Of a stretch of 64,000 nt of DNA, positions 18,501-58,289 are shown in pieces. The DNA lies in contig JAJDCA010000037.1 of NCBI GenBank assembly GCA_029261055.1, forward strand, positions 82,818 to 146,817. The letters are read 5' to 3'. Under the pieces are notes generated by a model that made no database searches, was not told the origin of the DNA, and saw only the letters and a list, made by a program, of their open reading frames with translations. This DNA is from Candidatus Omnitrophota bacterium (lineage in GTDB: Bacteria > Omnitrophota > Gorgyraeia > Zapsychrales > Zapsychraceae). The number at the start of each line of letters is the position of its first letter. Position 1 is the stretch's first letter. The translations under genes and the position numbers were made by a program.

Positions 18501-21500
18501 CGCTAATCTCTGTGCCGAGTTGGCACTATCATCAAGTCCACGAGTGATGTTTTCAGATATTGCTAAAGCCTGTGATAATGGATCTGTAATACCTCTTAGT
18601 TCTTCTAGTCCACGAACATCAAATTCAGCACGTATTTCGCCACCACGAACTTCTTGCTGAGCTTCTGCAATCTCTCTACGAAACTGACTCTGTGCAGCAA
18701 ATTCATTTACACGATTTGAAAAATCATCAATGGCATTTTTAGATGACTCAAGCGCTCCAGATAAGTCTTGTCCGGCAGATTGCACTAGATCACCAGAACG
18801 AAGAATAATATTTTCTAGATTCAATATAGAGTCTGGATCTAAACTTTCTAATGGACCCTTTATTCTTTCTACAGCGTCTCTAAGTAGGTCTCCACCAAAC
18901 CCTTGTTGCAGGTCTCTTATCGTAAAGTTTCCTGCTGTAGCTAATGCACTCTGAAAATCTAAAGCAGCTTTACTATTTGCCTCTTCATTTTTAGCAAATC
19001 TAATTAATGCCCCACCAGCAGCTATTAGTCCGGCCAATAAGCCAAATTTAATGCTACCTGTTAAGGCACCGAACGTTACACCAAGTTGTAATGCTTGGCT
19101 TGTTGCGTCTATTCCAGCAGCGGCAAATGCATCGTTGGCGGTTTTGCCAGCTTTAAAAGAGTCTGACAGTTTATCCAATTGCCCACCAGCTATATTAGAT
19201 ATTGCACCCAGTGCCGCTATGCCAGCAAGTCTTCGTTGACCCGCAACCTGAGCCTGTCTATCTTCTGGGGCACCGGCACCACTGAAAAAGCCACCTATCG
19301 CCTGCCTTGGGTTCCTTAACGTATCTCTTAAACTGTTTAGAGATCCTGTTAATCTCTCTAAGCCTCTTCCACCTAATCCTCTTAATCCACCTCTACCAGC
19401 AGCACCGACCGCTGCTCCAGCTTGACCAACAACCTGCCTTACCGGCGTTTGTGCAATTTGTGATATTCTTTGACGTAATCCTAGCTGTTTTTCTAGTTGT
19501 AGATTTACACCACGCTCTTTACCTTCTAATGTTGTTGTACTGCTACCAATTCTTTCTAGTGTGCCTCTAATTAATCCACCAATTTGTAGAAATTGTCTAA
19601 ATCCATTTACTAGAGATGATATTATTCTGCCGCCAACAGCCAATAGTCCTGTAGCCACCGCACCTCTTAATGCACCTGATATGGTTTGCACCACTTTACC
19701 TGCATCATTGAAGCTACTGCTTAGGTCAGAAACAACCTGTAAAACTGTAGTGGTCGTGGTTAAAACGTCTGACATTAAGCCGCGCAATCGTCCAGCACCT
19801 TCTGCACCTTCTGTAGTTCCGGCTAATGTGTTTACCAATTCATCAAATACAGATACTACTTTGCGACCTTGTGCTGCAAGTGTACTTAGTTCTTTTTCAT
19901 TTTTTGATAATGCTACACCAGAAGAATTAGCCTGTAATGCAACCAACTCTTGTGTTTTGCTAAAATTGTTTAGAATACCTGCAAAAATATTGAACTGCCT
20001 ACGACCACCAACCAAAAGACCAATTTGGTTACGTTGTGCAATACTTGTAACATCAAACACTTTCGCCAGTTTGCCTAGTACAGTTACCAAGTCGTCTCCT
20101 TGACGAATATTGGCACCAAATTGATTACCAACTTCTCTAAGTCGGTCGGCATTTGAAACTGCACGAGTAAAAATTGTCTTTAATGCTGTACCAACAGTAC
20201 CAGCTTGCAATTGCGTTTCTTCTAATGTTCCGGCAATGATACCTAATAATTGCTCAAACCCAACGCCTGATTCACGAGCGGCAGATGCAGATCTTAAAAA
20301 TGCTTGACCCACTGCACCAGCGGTTGTTGCAGCATTATCAGCAGTTACAGATAATCTGTCTAAAAATTCTATCGGGTTTTCTAAACTATCTCCGAAAACT
20401 TGTAATGCTGAAGTAATTAGTCTCGTTGAATCTGCGGCGTTTAGTTCAGATATATTTGTTGCCACTAGTGCGGCTTCTGCTCGCTCAAGTGCATCTTCTA
20501 CCCCTAAACCAGCACGAACAAATGTACCAAAAGCAGTAGAAACTTCGTCAAATGATCTAGATGTATTTCTTGCTACATCAAATAATCCTTCTGAAACACG
20601 AGCTAATTCTTGTGGAGTTGCATTCAGTACTTTATTTAAGTCCTGAATAACGCTATCAAATCTAACGATACTATCTAATGTTGCACTAAACAATTGCTGT
20701 GCTGCTATGATGGCTCTAACAGAGATAAGATACTGTCCGAACCTTGCTGTTATTTGGCCTAGTCTAGCGCCGAACACTTCAGCAGAACTTCCAGACTGTC
20801 TTAATACATTAGTAAGTTGTCTGGTTGAGCGAGTAGCGGCGTCCTCTGACTGGACCAACTTTAGATTTGCTCTTGCTAAAGCCCCCGCCTCGTTCGCCCT
20901 TCTTTGGAGCTGCATCTGTTCTAAGGCAGCTCTTGTTTGTGTTGCCCTACTTTGGACTTCAGATAAACGACCTGCGGCATTGCGAAGATTGGTTGACAAT
21001 GTTGCGGATTGCGTAGCGGCATCACCAAAGGATTGACGAACTTCCGTTAATCTACTTGCAGTATTGCGTAGGTTGCTGGTTAGAGTTGTGGATTGTCCGG
21101 CAAGGTCTCTAAAGGTTTGTTGCAGGTTTCTAAACCCCTGAACCTGTCTACTAACGCCACTTAACTGAGTTGTAGCTGTTCCAAGATTTTTAAATTCAGC
21201 AGCTAGCGTTCTAATGCGATCAGGATCTATTTTGCCTATGTCAGATCCAGGAACAGTGGCACTTTGTCTTTGCTCAAATTGACGACGAGCGTTGGCTGCT
21301 AATGCATCTCCAGTACCCCTAGCAGGGGTTGTTCTAACCTCCACATTGGATAGTTGGCCTTTTAATTGTCTAATTGCCGCTGCTGCTATTTGTGCAGATC
21401 CAATAGTAAATGGTATTCTCTTGAAGCTTTGCTGTAGTGTACTTTTGCCTGATCTACCAAATGATGTTTTCTGTACTGAAAATGCAATACTTCCAAAAGA

Positions 21501-21728
21501 TGTTTTAAGTTCTCTTTTACTCTCTGCTGAAAACTTTGCTTTGCCAATCCTAAAAGCTATTGTGGAGAATGAATCTTTTATACTAGTTTTTGCTGCCGAC
21601 GAGAATGCCACGCGCTCAATACTAACTGTCGCTGCTCCAATGGCTTTAGCAATCTGTTGGCGTATAGCTTTAACATCTACATCACGAGGTTGAAATTCAA
21701 CACCCAGCTTTAGTATAAAGTCAGCCAT
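15591..21728 (-). CDS. Tail length tape measure protein (2045 aa)
   Basis: Very long, Ala/Gln/Leu/Ser-rich, predicted helical ORF. N-terminus carries repeated (S/T)F..IAF motifs. Tandem 28-aa repeats occur (QSTTLTSNLRNTASRLTEVRQSFGDAAT / QSATLSTNLRNAAGRLSEVQSRATQTRA). Sits between chaperone-like genes and distal tail genes. Confidence 0.85.
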   Translation of the reverse strand: MADFILKLGVEFQPRDVDVKAIRQQIAKAIGAATVSIERVAFSSAAKTSIKDSFSTIAFRIGKAKFSAESKRELKTSFGSIAFSVQKTSFGRSGKSTLQQSFKRIPFTIGSAQIAAAAIRQLKGQLSNVEVRTTPARGTGDALAANARRQFEQRQSATVPGSDIGKIDPDRIRTLAAEFKNLGTATTQLSGVSRQVQGFRNLQQTFRDLAGQSTTLTSNLRNTASRLTEVRQSFGDAATQSATLSTNLRNAAGRLSEVQSRATQTRAALEQMQLQRRANEAGALARANLKLVQSEDAATRSTRQLTNVLRQSGSSAEVFGARLGQITARFGQYLISVRAIIAAQQLFSATLDSIVRFDSVIQDLNKVLNATPQELARVSEGLFDVARNTSRSFDEVSTAFGTFVRAGLGVEDALERAEAALVATNISELNAADSTRLITSALQVFGDSLENPIEFLDRLSVTADNAATTAGAVGQAFLRSASAARESGVGFEQLLGIIAGTLEETQLQAGTVGTALKTIFTRAVSNADRLREVGNQFGANIRQGDDLVTVLGKLAKVFDVTSIAQRNQIGLLVGGRRQFNIFAGILNNFSKTQELVALQANSSGVALSKNEKELSTLAAQGRKVVSVFDELVNTLAGTTEGAEGAGRLRGLMSDVLTTTTTVLQVVSDLSSSFNDAGKVVQTISGALRGAVATGLLAVGGRIISSLVNGFRQFLQIGGLIRGTLERIGSSTTTLEGKERGVNLQLEKQLGLRQRISQIAQTPVRQVVGQAGAAVGAAGRGGLRGLGGRGLERLTGSLNSLRDTLRNPRQAIGGFFSGAGAPEDRQAQVAGQRRLAGIAALGAISNIAGGQLDKLSDSFKAGKTANDAFAAAGIDATSQALQLGVTFGALTGSIKFGLLAGLIAAGGALIRFAKNEEANSKAALDFQSALATAGNFTIRDLQQGFGGDLLRDAVERIKGPLESLDPDSILNLENIILRSGDLVQSAGQDLSGALESSKNAIDDFSNRVNEFAAQSQFRREIAEAQQEVRGGEIRAEFDVRGLEELRGITDPLSQALAISENITRGLDDSANSAQRLAAAFEAGRSILEDQSVTIQDTIEAFNLQTESRARSQLQGGQLTEDIRNQVAELQLAVAAQGDFSDAIQRSVDRVSELEAGAKRVAEAGGALSDVGATNVLQDVPGVANLEGLLNLEREENITDELVKQSKLKEQLLSREQQIENLQSNIQRLREQETRITQELAREDGNIRSNLQDIQGLFIDIVAQSRESVSVARGETAEILNRNSALQTQAEIQRNLLSVEQNRGTLLQQFEARQGATLQAATADVDRQIESARRNVEGLQQLANQIRSASPEVAQSLDDAAKQLSSAIADQEGALRAEVELKLQPQLEAQAFEELKRNEEQLRQIRLDGIDQTLQAEQSRFNEQQELIERLGSFIQGIDAGGAGDAGGGSVRRLRQVIQNELEGISDDARRTFGAVGSILVRNTLQAFERVAERGREIIQSISEIRDPVQRQRRAAQAEQEIVQRNEEAVQFIRERILSQLRSSADRATGAEEALKEARDKATEAADKVKSAQDNLIQASEQVASAQERMSTALQAASDAQVSYNIAVTSARISVLNSTGAFRSFAEQVAALSEISATTADIIGVSEEKILEIRANTAQEALNIFQSQFSAIQSLGTRAATATLDQFGDLQTGLSAAQQVVAGEGADLSPELLQLASQFTDLFPGLERAISEIGLERLGVDPSILADIQDKQLQLAQITADSAQVAVVQAEKQVTIAFEQLNEARQQKDIAKGLLESAKEQEVKARENLAAAQRGANVAQAGFSRQATLASGALQKLSGQFVLGQRSLEVLAASRNLQSEAVDQLVELNARLGSATITSGANTANNASGSLSGSEINGLLLAAQREKRGMPPGSRLMLANTSETVLTRTQARGMGLRPVPKTNAQDGNAATTGSLESMAVALNAAVNTLISRLDSAALVEQNISVQVDSNRTVDVRGLDSLDSAINNSLQERFGTFASREEQAALKEVVVGLLTRLNEAQIVNSRGF

Positions 21729-33377: not shown

Positions 33378-33854
33378 CTATTTATTTCTATCTGTTAATT
33401 TATCAATCTTGCTCTCTACTATTTCTCTAACCATTTCTGTAGAGTGTCTCTGTTCTGATACTAACTTATCTATTAAATTTCTATTTTCTGCATGATCTGT
33501 TTGCTGTAATGTAACTAATTTTTCAACTGAATTTTTCTGTGATTCTACAGATACAGAAACAACTTGTGTAAGACCATCCAACGCTGCCGTAACATGATTA
33601 AGATGATTATCCAATGTTGTATCTCTACTTTGCACTAGTCCTACCATGTTTGTCATATTCTCCTTATGACCCTTAATCATATTTCTAATTAAAAAAAATA
33701 GAACACATGCGACAAATCCAGCCAATACAACTCCAAGACCATATTCTTGTGCAGCTTTACCCCAGCCGTCTATACCCCCTGCGTAACCAACAGAACTTGA
33801 CGCTGCTTCAGCAAGTAAAAAAACCACTAATCCTCCGATATGCTGGCATTGCAA
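33378..33854 (-). CDS. Small membrane protein (two predicted TM helices) within the head module
   Basis: Hydrophobic segments GGLVVFLLAEAASSSV and LGVVLAGFVACVLFFLI. Overlaps the portal gene end by 28 nt. Confidence 0.35.
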   Translation of the reverse strand: MQCQHIGGLVVFLLAEAASSSVGYAGGIDGWGKAAQEYGLGVVLAGFVACVLFFLIRNMIKGHKENMTNMVGLVQSRDTTLDNHLNHVTAALDGLTQVVSVSVESQKNSVEKLVTLQQTDHAENRNLIDKLVSEQRHSTEMVREIVESKIDKLTDRNK

Positions 33855-35920
33855 ATACTGAACGCCTTTTGCACAATTGCTCTCATGGCCTTTTTATTTG
33901 GGGCCTTGTCATGCTTTTTACGAAATTTAGCAACCTCTTCTTTAGTTACTGACTCTACACATCTGTCCAGCTTCTTGCCAGACTTTGACTTAAGTGCATT
34001 CTTTACTAAATCTTTGGTCCACCTATTTTCGCATACTAGTTGCGGCAACGCTTTGCCTATATTATCTATAATATTTATACGATCTGCCTCAGTTAAGTCT
34101 CTCAAGCTATCGTATTTGGCATTATCTGCTATCGTTGTTGCTATCATCTTGTATAGCTTATCAAAACCATTGTCTATCCTGTCTCTAGGTATAGGAGTTT
34201 TTTTAGCCGCTGTCTTTTGACCCTGTGGGCTATCTGGCTGAGTCTGCTGCTGTTGTTTTTTCTTTGTCCCTGGCGGTCGTCCACCCTTCTCACCTTCTCC
34301 GCCCTGTTGTGCTGGATCGTTACCATCTATGTCGTCATCATTAAGTAGTTGAGCTATATTTGATGTAAATTTACCGATTCTTAATAATGCATGATCTGAT
34401 TCTTGTTCTAAGACTTTTCTTTTAGCATCCTCTCTTCTGATTCTCTCTACTTCTATCCCTATATCTTCTCCAAACCTATCAAGAAGTGTTTCAAATGATA
34501 TTACATTGCGATCAAATAGCTCTATCATAAACCTTTTTTCCACTTCTTCGTCTGTGAGTGACATTTTCCCTATGCGCACAATTGGCGATTTTCTAAATCT
34601 CATGTTTCTTGAAACAATATTGACTTGCTCAACCCAAAACGACTCTAATATCTTTTGTCCAGTCTCAAGTCTCTCCATTAGCGTTTTTATAGCTAGAAAA
34701 CTATTGGAAAAGTTTCCACCCTCTCCGTTTATTAATGCTTCCGGTATTCCTAATCCTGCACGAATGTCTGCATCAACTTGCTTATACTTTTCCGCTGAAA
34801 AGAAATTTTCAACTGGTGGAAATACTGTTTCTATTGAAATTAGGTCGTCCCAGACTATGGTTTTGCTCTTGTGGGGATTCATTAACATTGATGTTAATTT
34901 TTGGTATTTCTTTTTAGATGGCAAGAATCCTTTTTCAGTAGATCCAAGTTTCACAATTGTTAAGGCATTTGTTACGCCTTCAGCAACAGATATATCCATA
35001 TTTCGAATAAGTTTTTTAAATTTAACATCAGGTATTACTCTCCAAAGCAACGGAGTAGCCCATGAGCGATATCCGTCTCTTTTGTAATATAGCATCTTTA
35101 GTCTATTTTTAGGAAGATTTATAAATCCAGTGCTTTTAAGTTTATCAAATGTATCAGTACCTATACCTATTTGCTTTTCAAAATTATCTATAGCCTTGTC
35201 TCTGTCTTCTCCAATTTGAGTAGACGTATTTACGCTCTTAAGCCCAAGATCTTCTGGACTGAATCTATATGACCACCCAACAGTGTCTAATAATTCGCTT
35301 CCTGTTCTAAACACTCTTAGCACGTCTAGCATTTCGTATCTAAAAGGAATTACATTTTTAACAGGTATTTCTGGATCTAGTATTCGTGAACTAACAAATT
35401 TTTTCTCTTCTGCTGATGACTTACGCATACGGTTTATTTCTTCTTCGTTAAGTTCACCGAAAAAGCTTAGTATGGGTACATTTCCGTCACGATATACACC
35501 CTTTAGTATTTGCTCCGACACTTCGTATGTTTTGGCAGTTTTCATCCATTTTTTAAAAAACTGTTTTATTTTTTCATCATTATGCTGAATTTCCAAATCT
35601 TCTAATGCAAAATCTACCATTATATCTATGATGTTGCCGATAATGCCTACATTTTCGTATGCTTCACGACATGAGGCTATCCTCTGATGAGTTTCTGCCT
35701 CATCATTTGTTCCATTTATCTGTGTGTTTCCATTAAATGATATTCTATTGTAGTCTAGATTAGTAAAAGCATTGGCCTTACTAAAAACACTGTCAACTGG
35801 CATACTAATAGATGCTCTCATATCATCTTTGGCGAGTATTCCGTCCCACGCCTTAGCTTTTTTGAATAGTGTTTGATTGGCCTTATTTAAAAATGGATTG
35901 TCTGAATCTTTATTTGGCAT
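33827..35920 (-). CDS. Portal protein candidate (697 aa)
   Basis: Large ORF immediately downstream of the large terminase, of the right size. The C-terminal Lys/Gln-rich extension is unusual. Confidence 0.5.
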   Translation of the reverse strand: MPNKDSDNPFLNKANQTLFKKAKAWDGILAKDDMRASISMPVDSVFSKANAFTNLDYNRISFNGNTQINGTNDEAETHQRIASCREAYENVGIIGNIIDIMVDFALEDLEIQHNDEKIKQFFKKWMKTAKTYEVSEQILKGVYRDGNVPILSFFGELNEEEINRMRKSSAEEKKFVSSRILDPEIPVKNVIPFRYEMLDVLRVFRTGSELLDTVGWSYRFSPEDLGLKSVNTSTQIGEDRDKAIDNFEKQIGIGTDTFDKLKSTGFINLPKNRLKMLYYKRDGYRSWATPLLWRVIPDVKFKKLIRNMDISVAEGVTNALTIVKLGSTEKGFLPSKKKYQKLTSMLMNPHKSKTIVWDDLISIETVFPPVENFFSAEKYKQVDADIRAGLGIPEALINGEGGNFSNSFLAIKTLMERLETGQKILESFWVEQVNIVSRNMRFRKSPIVRIGKMSLTDEEVEKRFMIELFDRNVISFETLLDRFGEDIGIEVERIRREDAKRKVLEQESDHALLRIGKFTSNIAQLLNDDDIDGNDPAQQGGEGEKGGRPPGTKKKQQQQTQPDSPQGQKTAAKKTPIPRDRIDNGFDKLYKMIATTIADNAKYDSLRDLTEADRINIIDNIGKALPQLVCENRWTKDLVKNALKSKSGKKLDRCVESVTKEEVAKFRKKHDKAPNKKAMRAIVQKAFSICNASISED

Positions 35921-36014: not shown

Positions 36015-39000
36015 TTATGTGAATTCATCAGACCATCCACCAATTGAGTTGTCGTCCTCGTATCTCTCTCTCAGGATCGCGTCTTTGTCATAATTTATCT
36101 CATCTAATCTCATGGCCATATAGTTAGCTAATAGAAATGAGGAATATCTATCTTTGTGCTTTACACCCTCTTCTTTTCTCTCGTCAGGTGGCTTTAAATC
36201 GAATGACTTCTTGCCTGTTTTAGTGTAGACTATTGTGATAGACGACAATTCTTTCTTTAATTCCGATACTTCAAACAGTATATCCTCTGCCTCGTCATCT
36301 AGGGCGCTAGTACTTGTGGTTACTGGAAACATGGTAAGCCTATCTTCAATATTTTTTTGAAGCAGGGTGTTTGACTCATCCAGCCACGCTGAGCCGAAAT
36401 TCTGTAAATTTAGTATTCGTAGCCCTTCTTTTGCCTCTTCGCTGTCGTCATCAAAATGATAAAACTTAGGTTCGTCTGGTTTACGAATTTCAAGACCATC
36501 ATCAGTTTTTTCCATATTTAACATTTCTTCTACAGCGTGGCCACCACCACCCGCATCCATGTTTATTCCAACAATGTTGAATCTTCTCCACAACTCTCTC
36601 ATGTGTGCTGCACATTCTGAATATTTTCTTTTTTGAGCAGTCCATTGATACACTAACTTGTGCGGTGTTCCGACCTCTATTATGGTGACAGCAAACCTAT
36701 CTAGCATTTTAGCTGGATCTACACCCATTACATACTGTCTCTTTGGCTTACCTCGCTTTAACACGGAAAAACCATTGGGCGGAGATGCTGTTGCTTCGCG
36801 TATCTGCTTGGCTTTATAGAATCCTGTACTGTCGTCTCCAAATAGCGTGTTGTACTCCATGTCGAACAATTGTTTTGGCATCTGTGACCTACTGGATTCA
36901 ATCACATCTTTTTCCATCATGCCATCTGGTATTGCCTCCCAGGGATAGCGCACGATACAGTAGTTATTGCAGTCAACCTCGTAGCCTTCGCGCTTTTCAC
37001 TTTCGTCAAATACATCACCGTGTTCGTCCACCGCACCCTTTACATTGTGTTTTATTATCTTCTGATAATGTGCGTAAACATGATGAAACGTCTCTCCTGT
37101 ATATCCTGCGGTTCCGGCCAATATAATTTTATTACCAGAATTGATATCTGACATAGCTAAATCTTCTGGCTCATTACCAATTGTACGAGCTTTTACCTTC
37201 TCCCAGGGGTCTAATTGTGTTGCAGCGAATCCACGCACTACTACATCAAATATTTCAATTGGAATTGAGTTGAACTCATCTGCCAGTATCACATGTCCAC
37301 GCTCTCCTCTAATTCTAGTATTGTGACTAAAGAATCCGTTTGCACAATACTCATGTCCATTTGGTACATGAATATCATATGTATGACCTTGACCATCGTG
37401 CTCTATGTCTGAAACTTTATCATAGAATATATTTGTATCATATAGATTTTCAATATCTTTAACTGTAGAATGATTAGTACCACCATGAACCCTTAAGAAT
37501 GTATTCGCCATCTTCCATGAAATATTTGATTTGTTTTTTAAATATCCATACGAACAATCTCTACTATTGTAGGAGCCTCTTGGTGCTCTAAACTCCTTGG
37601 AAAAACTTTTCACTTTGTCAATCATGTCTGGAAGATAATCGGAATGATTAACAAATCTTTTCTTATTTGCAATAATATTGTCTAGCCCATCTACTTTGCG
37701 AGATAAACGAAACCCTATTTTTTCATGAAATATTTTAAGATTGGCACCTCTTATTGTCAATTGATAACAAGTGTTCCATTTTTCACTACGATCACGTTTA
37801 TATACTGTTGCTACTATGCCGTAATGAAGCAGTATATATTGCAGTTGTTGAATTAGAATTTTGCTGGTATTATTAAACTCTACACATGTAGATCCTTCTC
37901 CAACATCAACAACACCTCCGTCTGAGTCCATTAGTCCTTTTATAAATTCTGTAACAACATGTCTTTCTGCACACATTATACTTTCTGGTATTCGTTTATC
38001 TTTTGTGCTAACATGTTTGTAAGATACTCCAAACTTAGACATAAAATTACTTTTGACAGACTTTCCATATGCATTGTAGTGACACCCATCTGTCGCAGGA
38101 ACAAAATTCCCAATTACACAAACAGCTTCAGCCAACTCCTGATCTTTTGTGGCAAATCCAATATTGTATTTGTCTTTAATACTGCCATCACCTATTATTA
38201 GTCCTAATGCATATGATTCATCTGGTGTAATGCTATTTGCCCCCTTGTGCCAGCGAATAGATCTGTCTATCAATACATGATCTGATTCAGTTATTTCATC
38301 AAATCTTGACCATATGATGTCTCCATCTCTAACAATTTTAACTTTGTGATTTTTTGTGCCACTAATTTCAAATCCACGAGAAGTACGAATTTTGATAATA
38401 TCTGTATAGCGATTATAATAAGACTCATTCGTTGACCTCATTTCCCCATTGCCCCAGACAGTTCTATTCCTATGAACTATGTTTTCGTTTTGGTCAACGT
38501 CTTCTGGTTGATCGTCTGATATGGTTCCAAATCTATCTCCATAAGTCACCATAGTGTCTGGACTTACACAGCCATCTCCCATTGGCAATGCTGTGACACT
38601 TGATCCACATATTTCTAGCTTCCAGCTATCCTGATTATGTACCGGCTCTCTCTCCATCATTTGACTCAACAATGGAGATTTTTTAATCATTTTTTCCATC
38701 TCATTGAAGACCAGCTTGGATTGTCTGAAGCTAGCTGAGACTAATATTATCCTTGAATATGGAAACATGATAGCATGATACAATGAATATGTAGCTAAGC
38801 TAAATGTCTTTCCGGCACCCCTTGACAATAATAGCAATGGAAACTTGTGTCTCAGCATTGCTATTATCATTGACATTTGGAATGGGAATAATTTTACACC
38901 TAGTAAATACTTTATACCAAAGGCAGGAGAATAGAATGGATTGCAGAGCTTGTAAAATTCCGTAAGCTCATCTTTTTCTTTCTGGTCCTCTCTAACATCT

Positions 39001-39101
39001 AATAATGGATTTATTAGTAATCTTTTATCTGGAATATTGTTCATCCACTCATAATCTGGATGAAATACTTTTGCAATTCTAGATATCTGTTTTGAGTCCA
39101 T
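36015..39101 (-). CDS. terL: Terminase large subunit interrupted by an intein (1028-aa precursor; about 611-aa mature TerL)
   Basis: Walker A LLLSRGAGKTF lies before the intein. Walker B-like HVILADEF follows immediately after the intein. The C-terminal half is nuclease-domain sized. RBS GAGGA upstream. Confidence 0.85.
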   Translation of the reverse strand: MDSKQISRIAKVFHPDYEWMNNIPDKRLLINPLLDVREDQKEKDELTEFYKLCNPFYSPAFGIKYLLGVKLFPFQMSMIIAMLRHKFPLLLLSRGAGKTFSLATYSLYHAIMFPYSRIILVSASFRQSKLVFNEMEKMIKKSPLLSQMMEREPVHNQDSWKLEICGSSVTALPMGDGCVSPDTMVTYGDRFGTISDDQPEDVDQNENIVHRNRTVWGNGEMRSTNESYYNRYTDIIKIRTSRGFEISGTKNHKVKIVRDGDIIWSRFDEITESDHVLIDRSIRWHKGANSITPDESYALGLIIGDGSIKDKYNIGFATKDQELAEAVCVIGNFVPATDGCHYNAYGKSVKSNFMSKFGVSYKHVSTKDKRIPESIMCAERHVVTEFIKGLMDSDGGVVDVGEGSTCVEFNNTSKILIQQLQYILLHYGIVATVYKRDRSEKWNTCYQLTIRGANLKIFHEKIGFRLSRKVDGLDNIIANKKRFVNHSDYLPDMIDKVKSFSKEFRAPRGSYNSRDCSYGYLKNKSNISWKMANTFLRVHGGTNHSTVKDIENLYDTNIFYDKVSDIEHDGQGHTYDIHVPNGHEYCANGFFSHNTRIRGERGHVILADEFNSIPIEIFDVVVRGFAATQLDPWEKVKARTIGNEPEDLAMSDINSGNKIILAGTAGYTGETFHHVYAHYQKIIKHNVKGAVDEHGDVFDESEKREGYEVDCNNYCIVRYPWEAIPDGMMEKDVIESSRSQMPKQLFDMEYNTLFGDDSTGFYKAKQIREATASPPNGFSVLKRGKPKRQYVMGVDPAKMLDRFAVTIIEVGTPHKLVYQWTAQKRKYSECAAHMRELWRRFNIVGINMDAGGGGHAVEEMLNMEKTDDGLEIRKPDEPKFYHFDDDSEEAKEGLRILNLQNFGSAWLDESNTLLQKNIEDRLTMFPVTTSTSALDDEAEDILFEVSELKKELSSITIVYTKTGKKSFDLKPPDERKEEGVKHKDRYSSFLLANYMAMRLDEINYDKDAILRERYEDDNSIGGWSDEFT
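37320..38570 (-). mobile_element. Intein (417 aa) with a LAGLIDADG homing endonuclease domain, inserted in the TerL ATPase domain
   Basis: Block A CVSPDTMV follows extein ...ALPMGDG. Block B GTKNHKV. Two LAGLIDADG motifs (LGLIIGDGS and FIKGLMDSDGG). Blocks F/G HTYDIHVPNGHEYCANGFFSHN are followed by extein Thr (TRIRGERGHVILADEF). Coordinates are derived from residue positions 178-594 and are accurate to ±2 nt. Confidence 0.8.
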
Positions 39102-39558
39102 TTCTTATTTCCTCACGATACAAAAATGCTCGTATCAACAAACTTCTAACTATCTTGTGTGCCATCTTTCTACTACCTGCAAAGATTATACTCACATTGT
39201 ACTTCATTGATAACGCTAGTATGCTTTCAAACACTGCATTTGGCGGAATTTTCGCATATCTATTTTTTTTATATATTGACGACCAATGATCTTCGACAAC
39301 TATATATCTGCGAGCGGAAGATTGCATTCTCTCCAGCTCTCTTATGAATCTTTTTCTATGCTTTCCAACATTGGCAGATAGTTCATCTGCGCTCTTTTTA
39401 CGTTCAATTGTGATAAGGTCTTCATGACCTTCGATTCCGTAATCACCGTGATCCAACTTCTTGTGTATTACTAACTCTATTGATTTGCCAGGTTTAAAGT
39501 CATATGGCATTTGCTCTCTTGAATCTATTACAATTGTTGGTAATTCTTTGTCTGACAT
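39079..39558 (-). CDS. ERCC4/XPF-Mus81-family (PD-(D/E)xK) structure-specific nuclease, 159 aa
   Basis: Full ERCC4 signature: IVIDSRE ... LDHGDYGI ... ITIERKKSADELSANV (VxDxRE / GDY / ERKx3D). RBS AGGAAGG upstream. Its 3' end overlaps the terL start by 23 nt. Confidence 0.7.
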   Translation of the reverse strand: MSDKELPTIVIDSREQMPYDFKPGKSIELVIHKKLDHGDYGIEGHEDLITIERKKSADELSANVGKHRKRFIRELERMQSSARRYIVVEDHWSSIYKKNRYAKIPPNAVFESILALSMKYNVSIIFAGSRKMAHKIVRSLLIRAFLYREEIRNGLKTDI

Positions 39559-41549: not shown

Positions 41550-42260
41550 TTAGTATATATTGTAGCCTTGTAGTGCATCTCTTAATGCCTTTTTTAGTAT
41601 TTTTTGCTCTTCTTCTTGCAAGAGTTCAATATCGTAATTTACATCTTTTAACTTATTGAATAGTGGATGGAAGGCGGACGGAAGATTTAAGCTGATATGC
41701 TCTAATATATCTAAAGTACTTTCATGTGATCCGCTATTTTCATCTTTTAGTATAGTAGAATCTAGTGATGCTGCATTATTTGCACTCATTTTAGCCTTTA
41801 AGAACTTTTCATGAGCTTCATATTTCTCACACTTCATTTTATCCTTATATTTCATACAGTCATGATTGCCAGCCTTAGATGCCACCTTATCCCACAATGG
41901 ACAACGAAAACAGGGCTTATTATGCTTGTATACTAGTGCTCTTTTTATATCTCTAATTCTATTTTCTGCTACGACAGAGAAAAAAGTACGCAGCCTTACC
42001 CCTCGCTCTGGTTTAAACTTATCAATTGATAGCCAGAGCTTCATTCTAATCTCTTGTGCTATGTCTTCCATTGATAGGTATACTATTTTCCAGTGCTTTG
42101 CAGCCTTACTCGTTGCAACACTTTCTATTATTTCCTTTATTTCTTTCTCTGTTAATTCTGCATCTTTAGGTGTCTTCTGTTTCTTCTTCTGAGTCTTCAA
42201 TTGTGTTTTCTTCGATGATTTTTCTTTTTTCTTCTTCACTTTCCGGTGCCTCTCCGCCAA
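41550..42260 (-). CDS. Phage-encoded sigma-70-family factor (region 2 homolog) with a poly-Lys N-terminus and a Cys cluster
   Basis: DIAQEIRMKLWLSIDKFKPERGVRLRTFFSVVAENRIRDIKRA aligns with RpoD region 2.1-2.4 ([40 protein letters not shown]). N-terminus RHRKVKKKKEKSSKKTQLKTQKKKQK. Also contains CFRCPLWDK...CMKYKDKMKCEKYEAH. Confidence 0.6.
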   Translation of the reverse strand: MAERHRKVKKKKEKSSKKTQLKTQKKKQKTPKDAELTEKEIKEIIESVATSKAAKHWKIVYLSMEDIAQEIRMKLWLSIDKFKPERGVRLRTFFSVVAENRIRDIKRALVYKHNKPCFRCPLWDKVASKAGNHDCMKYKDKMKCEKYEAHEKFLKAKMSANNAASLDSTILKDENSGSHESTLDILEHISLNLPSAFHPLFNKLKDVNYDIELLQEEEQKILKKALRDALQGYNIY

Positions 42261-43408: not shown

Positions 43409-45364
43409 CTATTGGATTTCACAGGCTCCACCCTGACAACTGATTTCCTTTGATCCTGTAGTATTGTCATCTATTTCAAATTTAGAGAGTTGACTATAAT
43501 CTATTTTTGGTAATTGTTTTTTCATTATGTTGTATTTTTTTTCATTTATAGATTCAAAAGGGGGCTGTTCGTAGTGTCCAGAATCAAACGGTAAAAACGA
43601 AACGCCGGTAATATATTTCCAGTTTTTATACACCCAGTTACCAACCTCCAGCCACTCGTCTTCTTTAACAAATATTGTGGCGCTAGCATTATGTTCACAC
43701 CAATGCTCCTGAATCTTTTTATAGTGTTCAAGCTGCTCAATAGCCGTCATGTCGTCTCTTAGTACAGACCCTTTGGGGGCAGCTACAGGGAACGATACAA
43801 CCCATGTATTAACCTTATCTTCCGTCCATCTCTTTCCCTTTTCATATATTATACACTTTTCTATATCACCCTTTTGTGCCATTTTCCAATCCTTCAATCG
43901 TTCTCCGTTTTCTGGTGACATCGGAAAGTTTTGATCTTTTAGCATTTGACACAGGGGATCTATAGAGGAGATTCTATAGCGCCTAATATAGAATTTAGAG
44001 AAACGACCATGTATTCCAGACGACGAGTTTACTAATTGTGAAACTGTTCCAGATGGTTTTACTGTGGTGATAGCTGTAGAGAAATTAATCCCAAGAACCT
44101 TTGATGCCTTTTTGGCGATCTTAATAGCTTTCTTTTTCATTGCTTTTAGTGCTATTGGGGTCAACATATCAATATTGTCCATCTGTCCAGTTAACGATAT
44201 TCCCAATAGCCTCTCTTCATTACAGTTTCTCTTCCACTTTTGAGATAGGTAAGAAAAATTTGTATAAGTTGATTGAAGCGCCCCTAACCATGCTGCTGTT
44301 TCTATTTTATCTAAGATATCGTCTAGGTCATCATTTGGACGAATAACAACTTCGGTCAAGTTACACATTTGGCATGATCTTAAAATTATCTCAGCACACG
44401 GATTACATCCTGCTAAAAGATTTGTTTTTCGTCTATCCGGTGATCTCTTTATTGCACCCTCTAGATTAAAAATCCCTCTTTCTCCAGTTCCGCTTTTTGC
44501 TAAAGCAGACCACTCTTCCATAAAACTAATAGCCCCAGGCTTATCCCTATATATTGTTGATATATTCGCCATCGCTCTATGTAATGGAAATGGCCAAGTC
44601 TTGGCCCCTCTAATTTCTTTGTCTGATAAGTCTGATAGAGCCAATTGAGAGCTTCTTCTAACACCCCCTACAACAACTACTTCAGCTATTTTATTTAAAA
44701 TATCCAAGCACTCAATAGATTTTAGCTGTCTGCCCTGCGCCTCAATAAAAATCATTCTAATAAAGTCGTGAAGAGTTATTAGTGGTTGTTTGCCAGAAGA
44801 CCTTCCTCCAAATGTTTTTAATCTTGCTCCCTTTGGTCTAAGTAATCCATAATCAAAGTCCATATCTTTTCCAGCATATAGTGCCTTCATAAGATATTTA
44901 ACAGAATCAGCCCATCCCTCTTTTGAATCTGGAACTATGAAGGTTCCTGCACCTTCTCCAAGCATCTTGCTGATGGTTGGTAATTTATCTACATATTTAT
45001 TTTCTACAGAAAATCCATAACCAGTTCCACACATTAGAATGTACAAACATTCAGCAAACGCCTCAATGCAGTCAATATTTTGATAGGAGCAATTATATAG
45101 TGCTGCATGAACTTTATTTCCAGCGTCTCCAGCAGCCCATAATGCCCTCATGCTGCCCATAACTGAAAAATTTAACATATAGTTTCTAGCTTTACGAAAC
45201 ACCTTTTGTGGAACACTATCACCATTGCCCTGTTCTAAAAACGTAATATATCTATCTACTGTCTCATCCCATGTTTCTCTGCGATTTTCCTCTTCTAGCC
45301 AACGCGAATAAGTCCTGGTGTACACAAATTCAGCCGCTTCATTTGCAAACTCTACTCTACTCAT
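43409..45364 (-). CDS. nrdJ: Ribonucleotide reductase, class II (adenosylcobalamin-dependent, NrdJ-like)
   Basis: Active-site loop GCNPCAEIIL (class II SNPCGEI). C-terminal redox pair CQGGACEIQ. N-terminal ETWDETVDRY. Start chosen at the Met preceded by AGGAGA (track start 45466 would overlap the upstream gene by about 90 nt). Confidence 0.7.
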   Translation of the reverse strand: MSRVEFANEAAEFVYTRTYSRWLEEENRRETWDETVDRYITFLEQGNGDSVPQKVFRKARNYMLNFSVMGSMRALWAAGDAGNKVHAALYNCSYQNIDCIEAFAECLYILMCGTGYGFSVENKYVDKLPTISKMLGEGAGTFIVPDSKEGWADSVKYLMKALYAGKDMDFDYGLLRPKGARLKTFGGRSSGKQPLITLHDFIRMIFIEAQGRQLKSIECLDILNKIAEVVVVGGVRRSSQLALSDLSDKEIRGAKTWPFPLHRAMANISTIYRDKPGAISFMEEWSALAKSGTGERGIFNLEGAIKRSPDRRKTNLLAGCNPCAEIILRSCQMCNLTEVVIRPNDDLDDILDKIETAAWLGALQSTYTNFSYLSQKWKRNCNEERLLGISLTGQMDNIDMLTPIALKAMKKKAIKIAKKASKVLGINFSTAITTVKPSGTVSQLVNSSSGIHGRFSKFYIRRYRISSIDPLCQMLKDQNFPMSPENGERLKDWKMAQKGDIEKCIIYEKGKRWTEDKVNTWVVSFPVAAPKGSVLRDDMTAIEQLEHYKKIQEHWCEHNASATIFVKEDEWLEVGNWVYKNWKYITGVSFLPFDSGHYEQPPFESINEKKYNIMKKQLPKIDYSQLSKFEIDDNTTGSKEISCQGGACEIQ

Positions 45365-45374
45365 GCTTCTCCTA

Positions 45375-46550
45375 TTAGTGCAAATTATGCTCATTGGCTT
45401 TGCGGGTGTAGAATTTACCACCGACCTCAGCAAAATCCCTAACATCTGTATAGTTGAATACAACATCTTTGGTTTCTGTGTCTACATGAATAATAATAAA
45501 CCCATTTGACCATTTTTCACCATCGCAATATGATGCATCCCTATAATGCATACCTCCCAACTGATGCCATTCATATGATCTGCGATTTACGTTATAATCA
45601 TGCCAAACTAAATGATGATGATGATGCCCATTAATTCCTGGCATTCCAGCAATATTACGACCCTGCGGTTCATGATGAACCAAAAATGCGTCATCGTATA
45701 TTTTGAAACTACGAGCAACTTGATTATTTTCGTCACCCTTATTCCATGCAGTAAGGTCAGCTTTGCCAATATAATTTATCTCAAATTTATCTAACCCCAA
45801 CATTTCTCTAACGCCCATATTATGAACTTCAGAGAGTATTGACATTGTTGCTGCATCAGCATTACACATATGCTTAACTAATCTAAGCTCGTGATTGCCT
45901 TCAATCATGTCGATCTGTGCATCACCAGCGGCTTTGCGAACTGGTTTTAGTATCTTTTCGTGAACAAATTTAATTCTGCCAGCGGCATCCCATGTGCGAG
46001 GATCTACTGGAAATCTACCAAACTCTGGCAGGTCAAATATGTCTCCGGCCAGTATCACTCCTGCTAATTGTCCAGCCTTTTTAATACGTGATATTGTATC
46101 AACAAACACTCGCAGGCAAAAGGGATCGCACTCTTTATCGTGGAAGTCTGATGCTGCAACGTATGTTTTTATTCTTCCTTTGGCTGGACGACTAAACTTG
46201 TCCGCCCAAGTTGCTCTCTCAGCATTCATTTTCCTATATATATCAGCATCTTTATGCTTGGCAATATCATTGGCTAGTTTTTTCTGCCCCCTAGTTGGGG
46301 TTATGTTTGCCGCCCTTTGAAATGCCGGAAATGTTCCAAAGTACTTCTCCCAGTGAGAGTCTTTTATCTGTGTTCTGGTTCTAAAGTATCCTCTGCTTAG
46401 CGTGGTACATCCATCATCTTGACGAAACTGCCAAAGTCCCTTTATCAATGTTATGAAATCCTGCTCTGTTAGTTTACTGGCTATTTTGTCTGGTATTTTC
46501 TTTCCAGATTTAATAGCATCATTGAAATATTCTGTTTTTGTTTTTGACAA
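45375..46550 (-). CDS. Calcineurin-like metallophosphoesterase with an N-terminal extension of about 120 aa
   Basis: Motifs ASDFHD (DxH), AGDIFD (GDxxD), EGNHE (GNHE), and histidine-rich GINGHHHHHL. Confidence 0.65.
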   Translation of the reverse strand: MSKTKTEYFNDAIKSGKKIPDKIASKLTEQDFITLIKGLWQFRQDDGCTTLSRGYFRTRTQIKDSHWEKYFGTFPAFQRAANITPTRGQKKLANDIAKHKDADIYRKMNAERATWADKFSRPAKGRIKTYVAASDFHDKECDPFCLRVFVDTISRIKKAGQLAGVILAGDIFDLPEFGRFPVDPRTWDAAGRIKFVHEKILKPVRKAAGDAQIDMIEGNHELRLVKHMCNADAATMSILSEVHNMGVREMLGLDKFEINYIGKADLTAWNKGDENNQVARSFKIYDDAFLVHHEPQGRNIAGMPGINGHHHHHLVWHDYNVNRRSYEWHQLGGMHYRDASYCDGEKWSNGFIIIHVDTETKDVVFNYTDVRDFAEVGGKFYTRKANEHNLH

Positions 46551-46558
46551 GGTTCCTC

Positions 46559-47656
46559 CTACTTTAGTCCGTGAGCACCATTTTCTCCATAGCCAAGCGG
46601 TGTCACTGGTGTAAATATAGCATTTTCATACATTTCTTTAATAGTTCCTGCGTTCAGATATGTCATGCCGGAACGTAATCCTCCAATTAGATCATCCACG
46701 ACACATTCTACTGGCCCCCTACACTCTACCAATGACAACTCACCCTCTGGTGTTCTCTTTTTCGCTATGCCGTCCCAGCCATCCATTGCTGACTGCGATG
46801 CCATGCCTTGATATTTTTTAAATCTAGGCCCTTCACTATATCCTGGACCACTGATACCGACCTCACCATCTTTAAATTGGTGCGGCCCACTAGTTACTAT
46901 TTCTCCTGGAGTTTGATCGGTTCCTGCTAATAAGCTACCCAGCATTACAGAAGAGGCACCAGCGCTTAGTGCTTTGACTATATCTGAAGAGTTCCTAACA
47001 CCACCGTCTGCTATTACAGGCACATTGTACTTTTTAGACGCAGCCGAACATTCTAGGACAGAGGAAAACTGTGGTACTCCGCAGCCAGTAACTACTCTAG
47101 TTATGCACAGTGAACCGCAACCCACTCCGACCTTTATAGCATCTGCGCCAGCTTCACACAGCCTCTTTGTCCCTTCTTCTGTGGCTACGTTTCCGGCTAT
47201 CACATCCCATTCTGGGTATGTCTTTTTTATATATGTAATGAGATCGACTACACGTTCACAATCACCATGCGCAACGTCAACGCAGACTCCAGTAGCTAAC
47301 CTATCTTTATGCTCATAGATTGCTCGCAGCGTCTCTTTATTTCCCTTGCCTAAGCCTATCGAAAAAAACCTATTCTCACAACCGTAAAGTTCTGCCTCTA
47401 AAAGATTCTTTATCATATCTTCGCATGACATAAATCTGTGCAATATGGCTGCACCACCCATTTCGTCCATAGCCACCATCATGCCACTCTCTGTAACGGT
47501 GTTCATATTTGATGCTATAATGGGAATGTTTATAGACTTGTTTTTGGTAAATTTTGTTGTCGTGGTAACGTCATCGCCATATCTAGACACTTTATCTGTA
47601 TATTGCGGCCTCAATAGGACATCATCATAGCTGAGTCCATAATCTGTGAATTTCAA
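46559..47656 (-). CDS. guaC: GMP reductase / IMPDH-family enzyme lacking a CBS domain (GuaC-like)
   Basis: Near-collinear with E. coli GuaC: IPIIASNMNTV, CVDVAHG, VIAGNVAT, GADAIKVGVGCGSLCITRVVTGCGVPQ (catalytic Cys loop), VIADGG, IGGLRSGMTY. TTG start with an AAGGTAGG RBS. Confidence 0.7.
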   Translation of the reverse strand: MKFTDYGLSYDDVLLRPQYTDKVSRYGDDVTTTTKFTKNKSINIPIIASNMNTVTESGMMVAMDEMGGAAILHRFMSCEDMIKNLLEAELYGCENRFFSIGLGKGNKETLRAIYEHKDRLATGVCVDVAHGDCERVVDLITYIKKTYPEWDVIAGNVATEEGTKRLCEAGADAIKVGVGCGSLCITRVVTGCGVPQFSSVLECSAASKKYNVPVIADGGVRNSSDIVKALSAGASSVMLGSLLAGTDQTPGEIVTSGPHQFKDGEVGISGPGYSEGPRFKKYQGMASQSAMDGWDGIAKKRTPEGELSLVECRGPVECVVDDLIGGLRSGMTYLNAGTIKEMYENAIFTPVTPLGYGENGAHGLK

Positions 47657-48769: not shown

Positions 48770-50668
48770 ATGAATATTAATGGAGGGTGGATAGTGACAA
48801 ATTCAATTAATTTTATTCCAGGTTCAGATGGTGAAAATATCGGTGATGGATCTGGCATATTTCAAGATGTAAACAATAATACTCTTCGTTTTAAGACAAT
48901 TGTTCCAGTAAGTGGGTTAGAGATAATAGACACTGGCACAGAGTTGGAATTTACAATACTATCTACTGTTGGGGAAGCTGGACCGTCTGGTGCTACAGGT
49001 CCACAAGGCCCAAGTGGCGTTGCGGGTCCAAGTGGAGCGACTGGTTTGACTGGTGCTACAGGTCCACAAGGCCCAAGTGGCGTTGCGGGTCCAAGTGGAG
49101 CGACTGGTCCTAGCGGCTCTCAAGGAGTCCAGGGAGAAATTGGTCCATCTGGTACAGCACATACTTTTTCAAACATTGGAGCTGGGGAAGGTGTATTTTC
49201 TAGCATTGTATCAGATGATGTTCAATTTAAAAGCATAGTTGGTAATTCGGGTATTGATGTATCTTCTGACAGTGATGAAATATTTATTGACTTTGACATA
49301 ACCGAAGTTACTGAGCTTGGGCCGACTGTATCTGGACTATACTACCGTAAAGACGAAGATGTTATTCCTGATATTGACGAGACATACACTATAGGTAATC
49401 AAACAACTAAATTCGTTACTGTTCATGCATCAACTGGCGTTTTCACTGGTGCCAATAATGAAGTTGGTAAAGTAGCAGTTGGTGATTTCGGCGGCGGACT
49501 AGAGTGTGCAATAATCGAAAGAGGTCTTCCTGGTGCATTTCCGGCTTTAGTTATGCGTGGTGGTAGAGCCGCTATTATGGAGACATCTAATCTGGGAACA
49601 ATGGTTTCTGGATTCTATATGGGTCCAACTCAAAATATAATTATGGGAGATATAGAGGATTATACATCCAAAACAGGTGGTCAATTATATAGTAGTGAGC
49701 TTAACCACTTTGACAAGAAAATAACCTCTGTCCTACATACTAAATTGGTTGACAGTTCTAGCAATAGAGTTGCTCATTATGTTTTTAATACAAATTCCGT
49801 TAATTCTAAAAATAGTAATCCTAGTATTGCTTTAGAGGCTGTGTCTCAAACAAATGTCACGAAGGCTGTTTCTAATTATATTACAGCAATAAAGGCTAGG
49901 GCCGTAGCACTAGATTCTAGTTCTTCAGTTGTTATACCAAACGGTCTTTACGCTGGTCTTGATTGTCAAGTTATTCATAGTGGTGTTGGGAGAGTAAGCA
50001 CAGCTAAAGCTGCTTATTTTGGATTAAGTGCATCATCTACCGGATCATTCGGTAACGCCTATGTTGTTCATATTGCAGCTCCATCTGGATCATTCTCTGG
50101 TGCCAACAAATCTCTGTGGTGTGAGGGCGAGGCATGTTTTACAAATAATGTAGAAATAGTTAATGACTTAAATATCGGCTCTGATATAATTGTTGTAGGA
50201 ACAGTAGAAGGCGATATTTTTCAAGTCAATGATTCCTTGACAGTAGAATCTATATCAACTTTTAATGATGATATTACCGCTACTGCTGATGCCTTTTTCG
50301 ACAATGATGCTAGTGTTAGCGGATGCTTAGAGACCAAAATAAGGCGCGATGCATCACGTAGGGAATCATTTGTTTTTGTCGACAATATTGCATTTGATCG
50401 CAATTTAATCTATGGAGATATGGCTGCTGCTGGCTCCATATTGACAGTGACAGATCCAGGTAAAAATGGACAAGAGACGAAAGTTGTATGGAAACAAAAT
50501 AACGCCGGAACAGGGTTCGTTACGTTTTCTTATTCTGGTGGTATTAAGTGGAGAGGTGGAGCAGCGCCAACGCTAACAGCGACATCTGGTGTCAGAGATA
50601 TATTTACATTTTTGTACGACTCGACTGATGATGTGCTCTATGGGCATGCTGATCAGGGCTATGCTTAA
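48770..50668 (+). CDS. Collagen-like (G-X-Y repeat) fibre protein with a large C-terminal globular domain, 632 aa
   Basis: About 48 uninterrupted G-X-Y triplets ([25 protein letters not shown]...). It is the only plus-strand gene within about 50 kb of minus-strand genes. A GTG at 48794 preceded by GGAGGG is an alternative start. Confidence 0.8.
48989..49107 (+). repeat. Perfect 56-nt direct repeat with 63-nt period (2 copies) inside the collagen-like region
   Basis: ggtgctacaggtccacaaggcccaagtggcgttgcgggtccaagtggagcgactgg occurs at 48989-49044 and again at 49052-49107. It encodes the 21-aa unit [18 protein letters not shown](L/P)(T/S)G. Confidence 0.8.
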
Positions 50669-58032: not shown

Positions 58033-58204
58033 GCCAGATTTGAGATGATCATGCTCACCGAGCCATTTGCCTTTCCTTGCGGAAACTTCAAGAATCATAG
58101 CTAGGCTATTCTCGCTCAACTTAAAGTCTTTTTGTTCGTACTGGACTATTGTTACGTTGTCTTAACCATATAGGGATTCGGGCAACGCAACTCAATATTT
58201 AAAA

Positions 58205-58278
58205 TACACTCATTAGGATTCGAACCTAAAACCTACAGGGTAGAAACCTGTTGCTCTATCCATTTGAGCTATGAGTGC
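58205..58278 (-). tRNA. tRNA-Arg (anticodon UCU), 74 nt
   Basis: Manual cloverleaf: acceptor GCACTCA/TGAGTGT(A), D-arm GCTC-AAATGGATA-GAGC, anticodon arm ACAGG-TTTCTAC-CCTGT, variable AGGTT, T-arm TTAGG-TTCGAAT-CCTAA. Lies 12 nt downstream of the preceding CDS. Confidence 0.8.
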
Positions 58279-58289
58279 ATAGCTTATTC

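Follow-up and report, generated by a model that had tools for sequence, protein, structure and literature searches.

The large terminase gene (terL) of a phage, contained in a 64,000-nucleotide stretch of contig JAJDCA010000037.1 (the whole stretch is referred to here as the window), is interrupted by an element that is almost certainly a class-1 intein. The element carries a LAGLIDADG homing endonuclease of the monomeric, double-motif type, and interrupts the ATPase domain of the TerL protein without a change of frame. The intein occupies residues 178-594 of the precursor (417 residues, ~47 kDa; window positions 37320..38570, on the minus strand, as are all parts of terL described below), and consists of a Hint splicing domain split by the LAGLIDADG homing-endonuclease domain. 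It is assigned as an intein because the splicing blocks, the matches to hidden Markov models (HMMs), the predicted fold, and the seamless junction in intein-free homologues all agree. An earlier note on this DNA, made from its letters and open reading frames (ORFs), had proposed an intein with two LAGLIDADG motifs at these positions. Its limits are exact, the splicing blocks are where it had placed them, and both motifs are found, each with its catalytic Asp.

Identification of the intein

The intein starts with CVSPDTMV from residue 178 and ends with GFFSHN at residues 589-594, after which come Thr595 and RIRGERGHVILADEF. Splicing block A is the CVSPDTMV sequence itself (38547..38570), in which the nucleophile Cys1 is Cys178 of the precursor, and block B contains the TxxH motif in the form TKNH (residues 249-252, T72 to H75 of the intein; 38346..38357). 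Towards the C-terminal end, block F is YDIHVPNGHEYCANG (residues 575-589; 37335..37379), with D399, H401 and H406 invariant, and block G is FFSHN, which ends in His593-Asn594, plus the extein residue Thr595, which is the +1 nucleophile (37317..37334). The LAGLIDADG motifs are YALGLIIGDGS (residues 297-307; 38181..38213), whose catalytic Asp is D128 of the intein, and FIKGLMDSDGG (residues 386-396; 37914..37946), whose catalytic Asp is D217.

The excised 417-residue sequence was compared with Pfam, as the earlier note had proposed, and three Hint or LAGLIDADG models scored above their cut-offs: LAGLIDADG_3 (PF14528; 1.4e-22, in two stretches), Intein_splicing (PF14890; 3e-13, 50.3 bits against a cut-off of 35.8) and Hom_end (1.5e-5). 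These matches are much stronger than chance would give. Within NCBIfam, the intein_Cterm model (TIGR01443) matches residues 573-595 with 18.9 bits (cut-off 15.6), and the intein also matches the intein portions of the GyrA, DnaB, ribonucleotide reductase (RNR), RecA and other models. A phmmer search of PDB sequences gave alignments with the Mxe GyrA intein, of the block B stretch isgtknhkv to VTGTANHPL and of the C-terminal ...cangffshn to ...FITNGFVSHN.

AlphaFold2 gave a model of the intein with a pLDDT of 87.1 and a pTM of 0.89, in which a LAGLIDADG endonuclease fold is predicted. The best PDB matches to this model found with Foldseek are inteins of full length that bear an endonuclease, namely TliVMA (7qss; E 4.6e-22, TM 0.71), PI-PfuI, PI-TkoII and PI-SceI, and lower matches include mini-inteins and free LAGLIDADG enzymes (I-DmoI, TMt 0.59-0.65, and I-Tsp061I).

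The spliced 611-residue sequence, used as query, found 241 relatives. The complete 1028-residue protein is also present, with identical sequence, in an independent public record (P0001, on a contig of 154,790 bp). Three intein-free relatives (P0002-P0004; 610-611 residues, 77-78% identical to the spliced TerL) read ...ALPMGDG-[S/A][R/K]IRGERGH..., with zero residues between the extein halves, so that the alignment to intein-less TerL proteins which the earlier note had also suggested shows a seamless junction.

Conservation was assessed on 14 full-length inteins at the same insertion site, called site b below. Across these there are 71 invariant columns, and C1, T72, H75, D399, H401, H416 and N417 are invariant in all 14. 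The +1 residue is Thr in ten cases and Ser in four. The catalytic Asp of the first LAGLIDADG motif is kept in 13/14, and that of the second in 14/14.

The host protein and the insertion point

The precursor ORF (36015..39101) encodes 1028 residues followed by a TAA stop, and starts at an ATG with a GAGGA Shine-Dalgarno sequence 8 nt upstream. Without the intein it encodes 611 residues, and the ratio 1028/611 = 1.68 agrees with the figure of about 1.7 times normal length given in the earlier note. The host protein is a phage TerL, as the earlier note had it, and is composed of an ASCE ATPase and an RNaseH-like nuclease. It matches PHROG 2, terminase large subunit (5.2e-24), and a profile match to T7 gp19 aligns both the Walker A and the Walker B motif. 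The Pfam matches are borderline by themselves (Terminase_6N, 22.3 bits with a cut-off of 22; Terminase_6C, 18.9 bits with a cut-off of 22.6). An AlphaFold2 model was made of P0002, which is a 78% homologue, and its top PDB matches in Foldseek are all large terminases, namely T4 gp17 (6.6e-17), Sf6 gp2, HK97, D6E, T7, and the ATPase and nuclease domains of P74-26. Directly downstream of terL there is a portal-like gene (33827..35920), which matches portal PHROGs.

The N-extein (residues 1-177; 38571..39101) is the N-terminal part of the ATPase, ends in ...SSVTALPMGDG, and is 80.8% identical to residues 1-177 of P0002 in an ungapped alignment. It contains the Walker A motif or P-loop, SRGAGKT (residues 93-99; 38805..38825), which aligns with FRGIGKS of T7 gp19, and in which R94, G95, K98 and T99 are invariant across 42 intein-free homologues. 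The C-extein (residues 595-1028; 36018..37319) is 76.4% identical to residues 178-610 of P0002, and contains the remainder of the ATPase, from Walker B onwards, and the RNaseH-like nuclease domain. Directly after Thr595 it has the loop RIRGERG (37296..37316), which contains an IRGxR motif: I180, R181, G182 and R184 are invariant in the TerL family alignment, and the two arginines are R598 and R601 of the precursor. This is followed by the Walker B strand HVILADEF with the catalytic Glu (residues 603-610; 37272..37295), which aligns with DIIIADDVE of T7 gp19 and is strand 187-191 in the P0002 model. Both the Walker A motif (here SRGAGKT) and the Walker B motif (here VILADE) are invariant in the TerL family. 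Further on, a stretch at 36711..36725 contains the invariant residues D378, P379 and A380, and the nuclease domain matches those of G20c and P74-26 in Foldseek (TMt 0.71-0.75).

The intein is located between Walker A and Walker B, where the earlier note had put it. More precisely, a loop connects the strand ..TALPMGDG to the invariant IRGxR motif, and the insertion point is within this loop, with 9 residues left before the Walker B strand; the IRGxR motif begins three residues past the insertion point. In the P0002 model, residues 167-173 (ITALPMG) and 187-191 (VIIAD) are strands, and the intein site, 177/178, is in the loop between them.

A tblastn search found no second terL and no second intein within the 64-kb window, and the terL region gave no RNA element, for example an intron, in Rfam and tRNA scans. 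An 80-residue plus-strand ORF inside the intein (37959..38201) was considered and set aside as unsupported.

Proposed splicing and homing

The residues of the standard class-1 pathway are all present, namely Cys178, the Thr and His of block B, His593-Asn594, and Thr595 at +1. The terL gene would be translated as a 1028-residue precursor, in which the 417-residue domain separates the half carrying Walker A from the half carrying Walker B. Cys178 would undergo an N-S acyl shift, the thioester would be attacked by Thr595, Asn594 would cyclise, and the exteins would be ligated to give a 611-residue TerL with the junction ...PMGDG-TRIRGERGHVILADEF. Assembly of the ATPase is expected to need splicing because the intein is in the loop before Walker B, and the ATPase active site and the pentameric motor would be formed by the spliced product only. 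The freed intein would then cut intein-free terL alleles, during co-infection, at the sequence encoding GDG/[S/T]K[I/L]RG, and repair of the cut allele by recombination would copy the intein in. The intein-free target was reconstructed as AGTGTCACAGCATTGCCAATGGGAGATGGC on one side of the insertion point and ACTAGAATTAGAGGAGAGCGTGGACATGTG on the other. Both protein splicing and DNA cleavage are thus predictions made from the sequence. For comparison, previously studied terminase inteins spliced readily in a reporter, with ligated exteins as the main product, and cleavage of intein-free alleles was seen with two of these inteins (PMC5050341).

Since the window holds no second terL, packaging in this phage, whose genome is ~155 kb, very probably depends on splicing. 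The earlier note had packaging depend on it entirely, which goes further than what was observed.

The position of the insertion is also of interest in relation to the catalytic mechanism of the ATPase. In P74-26 TerL, a trans-acting arginine finger, R139, has been confirmed biochemically, and it is found between helix alpha-2 and the Walker B strand; an Arg is likewise present between these elements in the T4 terminase (PMC5727402). By analogy, we infer that R598 or R601 is a candidate for the trans-acting arginine finger. P74-26 TerL was matched by the fold search, and neither a profile search nor a single-sequence search reached it for a residue alignment.

Some observations count against a splicing and homing intein on which packaging depends. 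The NCBIfam intein_Nterm model (TIGR01445) starts exactly at residue 178 and extends to residue 254, and its score of 24.1 bits is slightly under the cut-off of 24.5. The reconstructed homing site is identical at 29/40 positions to the nearest intein-free allele at hand. Finally, an uninterrupted second terL may be present elsewhere in the ~155-kb genome, beyond the window.

Distribution of inteins in the TerL family

Insertion sites were surveyed in the best 120 of the 241 TerL relatives, and inteins were found in 10 of these, at four sites (splice junctions are marked here by an arrow). Site a is in Walker A (GGK↓C..HN↓T) and is occupied in P0008, P0046, P0049, P0099 and P0113. Site b, that of the window intein (GDG↓C..SHN↓[S/T]), is occupied in the window protein (= P0001) and in P0007. 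Site c is just after Walker B (ADEFN↓C..HN↓S; P0005), and site d is near the boundary of the ATPase and nuclease domains (MEYx↓C..HN↓C; P0051 and P0053). The clade that includes the window protein has nine members: five are intein-free, and the other four have inteins that occupy three different sites. The close relatives P0002-P0004 and P0006 are without the site-b intein.

A pattern scan of IMG/VR, using a profile of three inteins, gave 18 loci. The C-terminal junction could be read in 17/18, all at the insertion point of the window intein, and the N-terminal junction in 12, all of which have the form P[ML/T]GDG↓C...ANGF[F/H/Y]SHN↓[T/S]K[I/L]RG...DE. The host TerL proteins of these loci are just 24-39% identical to the window TerL across the flanking 370 residues, and their inteins are 36-47% identical to the window intein by tblastn (38-48% in global pairwise alignments). 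Insertion at site b recurs in at least 19 environmental phage TerL proteins. A search with the intein of a set of 5.8 billion proteins gave two matches only, and missed P0007, which is a 62% relative.

Two of the IMG/VR relatives, L005 (326-1585 and downstream) and L010 (3001-4248 and downstream), have terL ORFs of 1420 and 1518 residues, respectively. In L005 a second intein could be delimited, at site d (..LMEYGA↓CQLPGS...CIHHN↓CFVKDSDGFF), besides the one at site b. In L010, the extra length of the sequence and an end of the site-d type (...TLNATVHN↓C) suggest a second intein at site d. Outside the terminases, P0122, a PhoH-like ATPase, has in its P-loop (GVPGTGK↓C...HN↓T) a relative of the intein that is 28% identical, and the intein lineage therefore occurs in other P-loop NTPases as well. 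As regards the source of the sequences, two of the close TerL relatives, P0005 (NCBI MCK5610129.1, on a 168-kb contig) and P0066, were deposited under names of cellular organisms ('Candidatus Pacearchaeota archaeon', 'Candidatus Makaraimicrobium thalassicum'). Both records are probably phage contigs that were binned into metagenome-assembled genomes.

Evolution of the intein and its exteins

The nearest intein at the same site, that of P0007, also has 417 residues, aligns without indels, and is 62.1% identical to the window intein, while the two exteins are 73.4% and 68.1% identical (about 71%). The window has a GC content of 38% and the P0007 locus one of 62%, and their inteins have 34% and 56%. 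Both inteins are somewhat more AT-rich than their own exteins, and in the window the GC content at third codon positions is 0.235 in the intein and 0.36-0.38 in the exteins. Synonymous sites are saturated between the window and P0007, so that the ratio of non-synonymous to synonymous rates (dN/dS) cannot be computed between these two closest inteins; non-synonymous sites differ in a proportion (pN) of 0.26 in the intein and 0.20 in the N-extein. The identity is similar throughout the intein, being 61% in the endonuclease part and 62-66% in the splicing parts. Intein and extein identities correlate with r = 0.94 over 55 pairs, which are not independent of each other, and between distant TerL proteins the identity of the inteins exceeds that of the exteins by up to 18 points.

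These comparisons of sequence indicate that the intein has long been resident and under purifying selection. Nothing points to a recent transfer, because the closest relative of the intein has diverged further than the exteins have, and because the GC content tracks that of each host. The similarity of inteins between distant TerL proteins fits occasional horizontal movement over mostly vertical descent. The earlier note had described such inteins as marks of horizontal exchange between phages. This is true of the class, and is supported by the patchy distribution described above, but the window copy bears no trace of a recent transfer.

The divergence of the closest relative, the closeness of the GC content of each intein to that of its very different host, and the correlation of intein and extein identities would also be expected if splicing continues while the endonuclease has become inactive on the available targets, so that the intein is a fixed passenger, inherited vertically, near the end of the homing cycle. 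We consider this unlikely, although it has more in its favour than the other alternatives discussed below. Both catalytic Asp residues and the 71 invariant columns are retained across the 14 site-b inteins (the Asp of motif 1 in 13/14). Decaying endonucleases normally shrink, whereas here the full 417 residues align without indels, and the endonuclease is as well conserved as the splicing domain. Patchy presence among close relatives and the excess similarity of inteins in distant TerL proteins also speak against a purely vertical passenger. An intein with a retained homing endonuclease is the preferred reading.

An acidic residue in the loop and the +1 nucleophile

In intein-free relatives, the position of Thr595 is mostly taken by an acidic residue (D 51, E 42, S 10, G 5, A 1, T 1). 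In the set of 120 homologues, those proteins that are without a site-b intein have the loop motif G[N/T/Q/A/K..]G-[D/E] in 94 cases and GDG-[S/G/A/K] in 15, and none of them has GDG-[D/E]. All of the site-b inteins with a resolved junction (14/14) are in GDG↓[S/T]. There is thus a single acidic residue in the loop, at position -2 or at position +1, and the site-b intein is confined to the -2 version. The sequences are phylogenetically non-independent, and the pattern is to be read as a lead rather than as a statistical result.

Several explanations fit this exclusivity. The intein could invade only those alleles which already have Ser or Thr at +1; the loop could be remodelled following invasion; or the flanking codons could move with the intein through co-conversion. 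The GDG-S sequence found in P0002, P0003, P0006 and P0008, which are without a site-b intein, could be the footprint of an earlier occupancy.

It is improbable, on our assessment, that the intein is something more than a parasite. If it were, the likelier form, which also fits the data, would be a co-adaptation of host and element, in which a loop of the form GxG-D/E may have changed to GDG-S/T to suit the need of the intein for a +1 nucleophile; the other form would be a conditional-splicing switch beside the IRGxR motif. Such a switch would time packaging after translation, and its cue might be the redox state of Cys1, temperature, or the binding of DNA or a partner. The insertion is in the catalytic core beside invariant Arg residues, so that the precursor must be inactive, the intein has been kept across a long divergence, and regulatory roles have been proposed for inteins at ATPase sites (PMC5050341; PMC4760082). 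Nonetheless, the sequence indicates no sensor, the close relatives P0002-P0004 work without an intein, and the ready splicing reported for the terminase inteins of PMC5050341 is not what a switch would lead one to expect. We therefore regard a switch that times packaging as very improbable.

It is barely credible that the insertion is a non-splicing one (a degenerate remnant, or a domesticated domain within the mature TerL) or an assembly chimera, given that nothing specific favours either beyond the marginal intein_Nterm score, that every splicing residue is intact and invariant, that a 47-kDa domain before the Walker B strand is hard to square with assembly of an ATPase ring, that the identical protein occurs in an independent record, and that at least 17 other loci have the same architecture.

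Genomic setting

Directly upstream of terL, and overlapping its start by 23 nt, is a gene for an ERCC4-type nuclease (39079-39558, minus strand; PHROG 3490, 5.7e-25). The pairing of this gene with terL is also kept in the loci L001 and L002, and the nuclease might be part of a module for packaging or concatemer resolution. The contig that encodes P0002 is 127 kb long and has its genes in the order of the window (class II RNR, dUTPase, sigma factor, ERCC4 nuclease, TerL and portal-like gene). In L001 the portal-like gene is likewise placed after terL.

Also upstream of the packaging genes, and on the minus strand, are genes for a sigma-70 region-2 protein (41550-42260), a class II (B12-type) RNR which has no intein (43409-45466), and an enzyme of the IMP dehydrogenase/GMP reductase family (46559-47656; 6.7e-95). 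The only long plus-strand gene within this minus-strand block (48770-50668) encodes a protein of 632 residues, of which residues 60-150 match PHROG segments of tail fibre and collagen-like tail proteins. A 2045-residue ORF (15591-21728, minus strand) has a PhageMin_Tail domain (3.1e-21) and is probably the tape-measure protein, which would mean a long-tailed virion. A tRNA-Arg with anticodon TCT (58204-58279, minus strand) is the sole Rfam or ARAGORN match in the window. A megablast search with 15 kb around terL gave no match to GenBank phages.

Comparison with known inteins

For annotation, the gene should be described as a single intein-containing terL with a mature protein of 611 residues, and not as a hypothetical protein or a fusion. 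The presence of an intein as such is of limited interest. The interest is mainly in the invasion of one TerL family at four sites, with some genes having two inteins, which supports the established view that the ATPase motifs of terminases are preferred niches for inteins, and in the exclusivity of the acidic residue at -2 or +1, which offers a simple and testable case of intein chemistry constraining, or being constrained by, a host protein. Both the intein and its endonuclease might also serve as parts for protein engineering.

In its predicted fold, the intein resembles archaeal and yeast inteins of solved structure that bear an endonuclease, namely TliVMA (7qss), PI-PfuI (1dq3), PI-TkoII (2cw7) and PI-SceI (1vde), with Foldseek E-values from 4.6e-22 to 5e-12 and TM up to 0.71. 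The shared feature is a Hint horseshoe with an inserted LAGLIDADG domain of two-fold pseudo-symmetry. The sequence identity to these proteins is just 11-19%, and their hosts are different (V-ATPase, RNR and DNA polymerase). By sequence, the best match to the splicing domain is the Mxe GyrA mini-intein (1am2), in the block B stretch and the ...NGFxSHN end, but unlike the window intein this has no endonuclease domain.

Among GenBank phages, the best match to the intein is in the terminase of Psychrobacillus phage Perkons (MT325768.1, ORF209; 27.9% over residues 167-597). This too is a LAGLIDADG intein, in a terminase of ~1040 residues. It was considered as the same allele and rejected, as it sits in Walker A (FPRGFGK↓C...SHN↓T).

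Terminases are a common target of phage inteins (PMC4760082). In mycobacteriophages, the protein that most often hosts an intein is TerL, which has seven insertion sites, every one of them within the ATPase domain (PMC5050341), and 293 TerL inteins have been counted among about 800 actinobacteriophage inteins (bioRxiv 10.1101/2025.01.02.630785). The actinobacteriophage TerL inteins (TerL1-a to -e, TerL6-f and Pham3880-g; PMC5050341) are likewise class-1 inteins with LAGLIDADG endonucleases, located in the ATPase domain near a catalytic motif, and resemble the window family in having a patchy distribution, several independent sites, and a need for Ser, Thr or Cys at +1. The difference is in the host: the window TerL comes from an unrelated lineage of uncultivated phages of about 130-180 kb, and shares 24% identity with the closest TerL of GenBank phages. 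Compared by description, the loop GDG↓[S/T]K[I/L]RG is not obviously any of the published sites, which are in the P-loop, two helices, Walker B and the C-motif; it may correspond to TerL1-e. It is concluded that the intein is an ordinary case of the well-known class of phage terminase inteins, in a host lineage that is new and at an insertion point that is possibly new.

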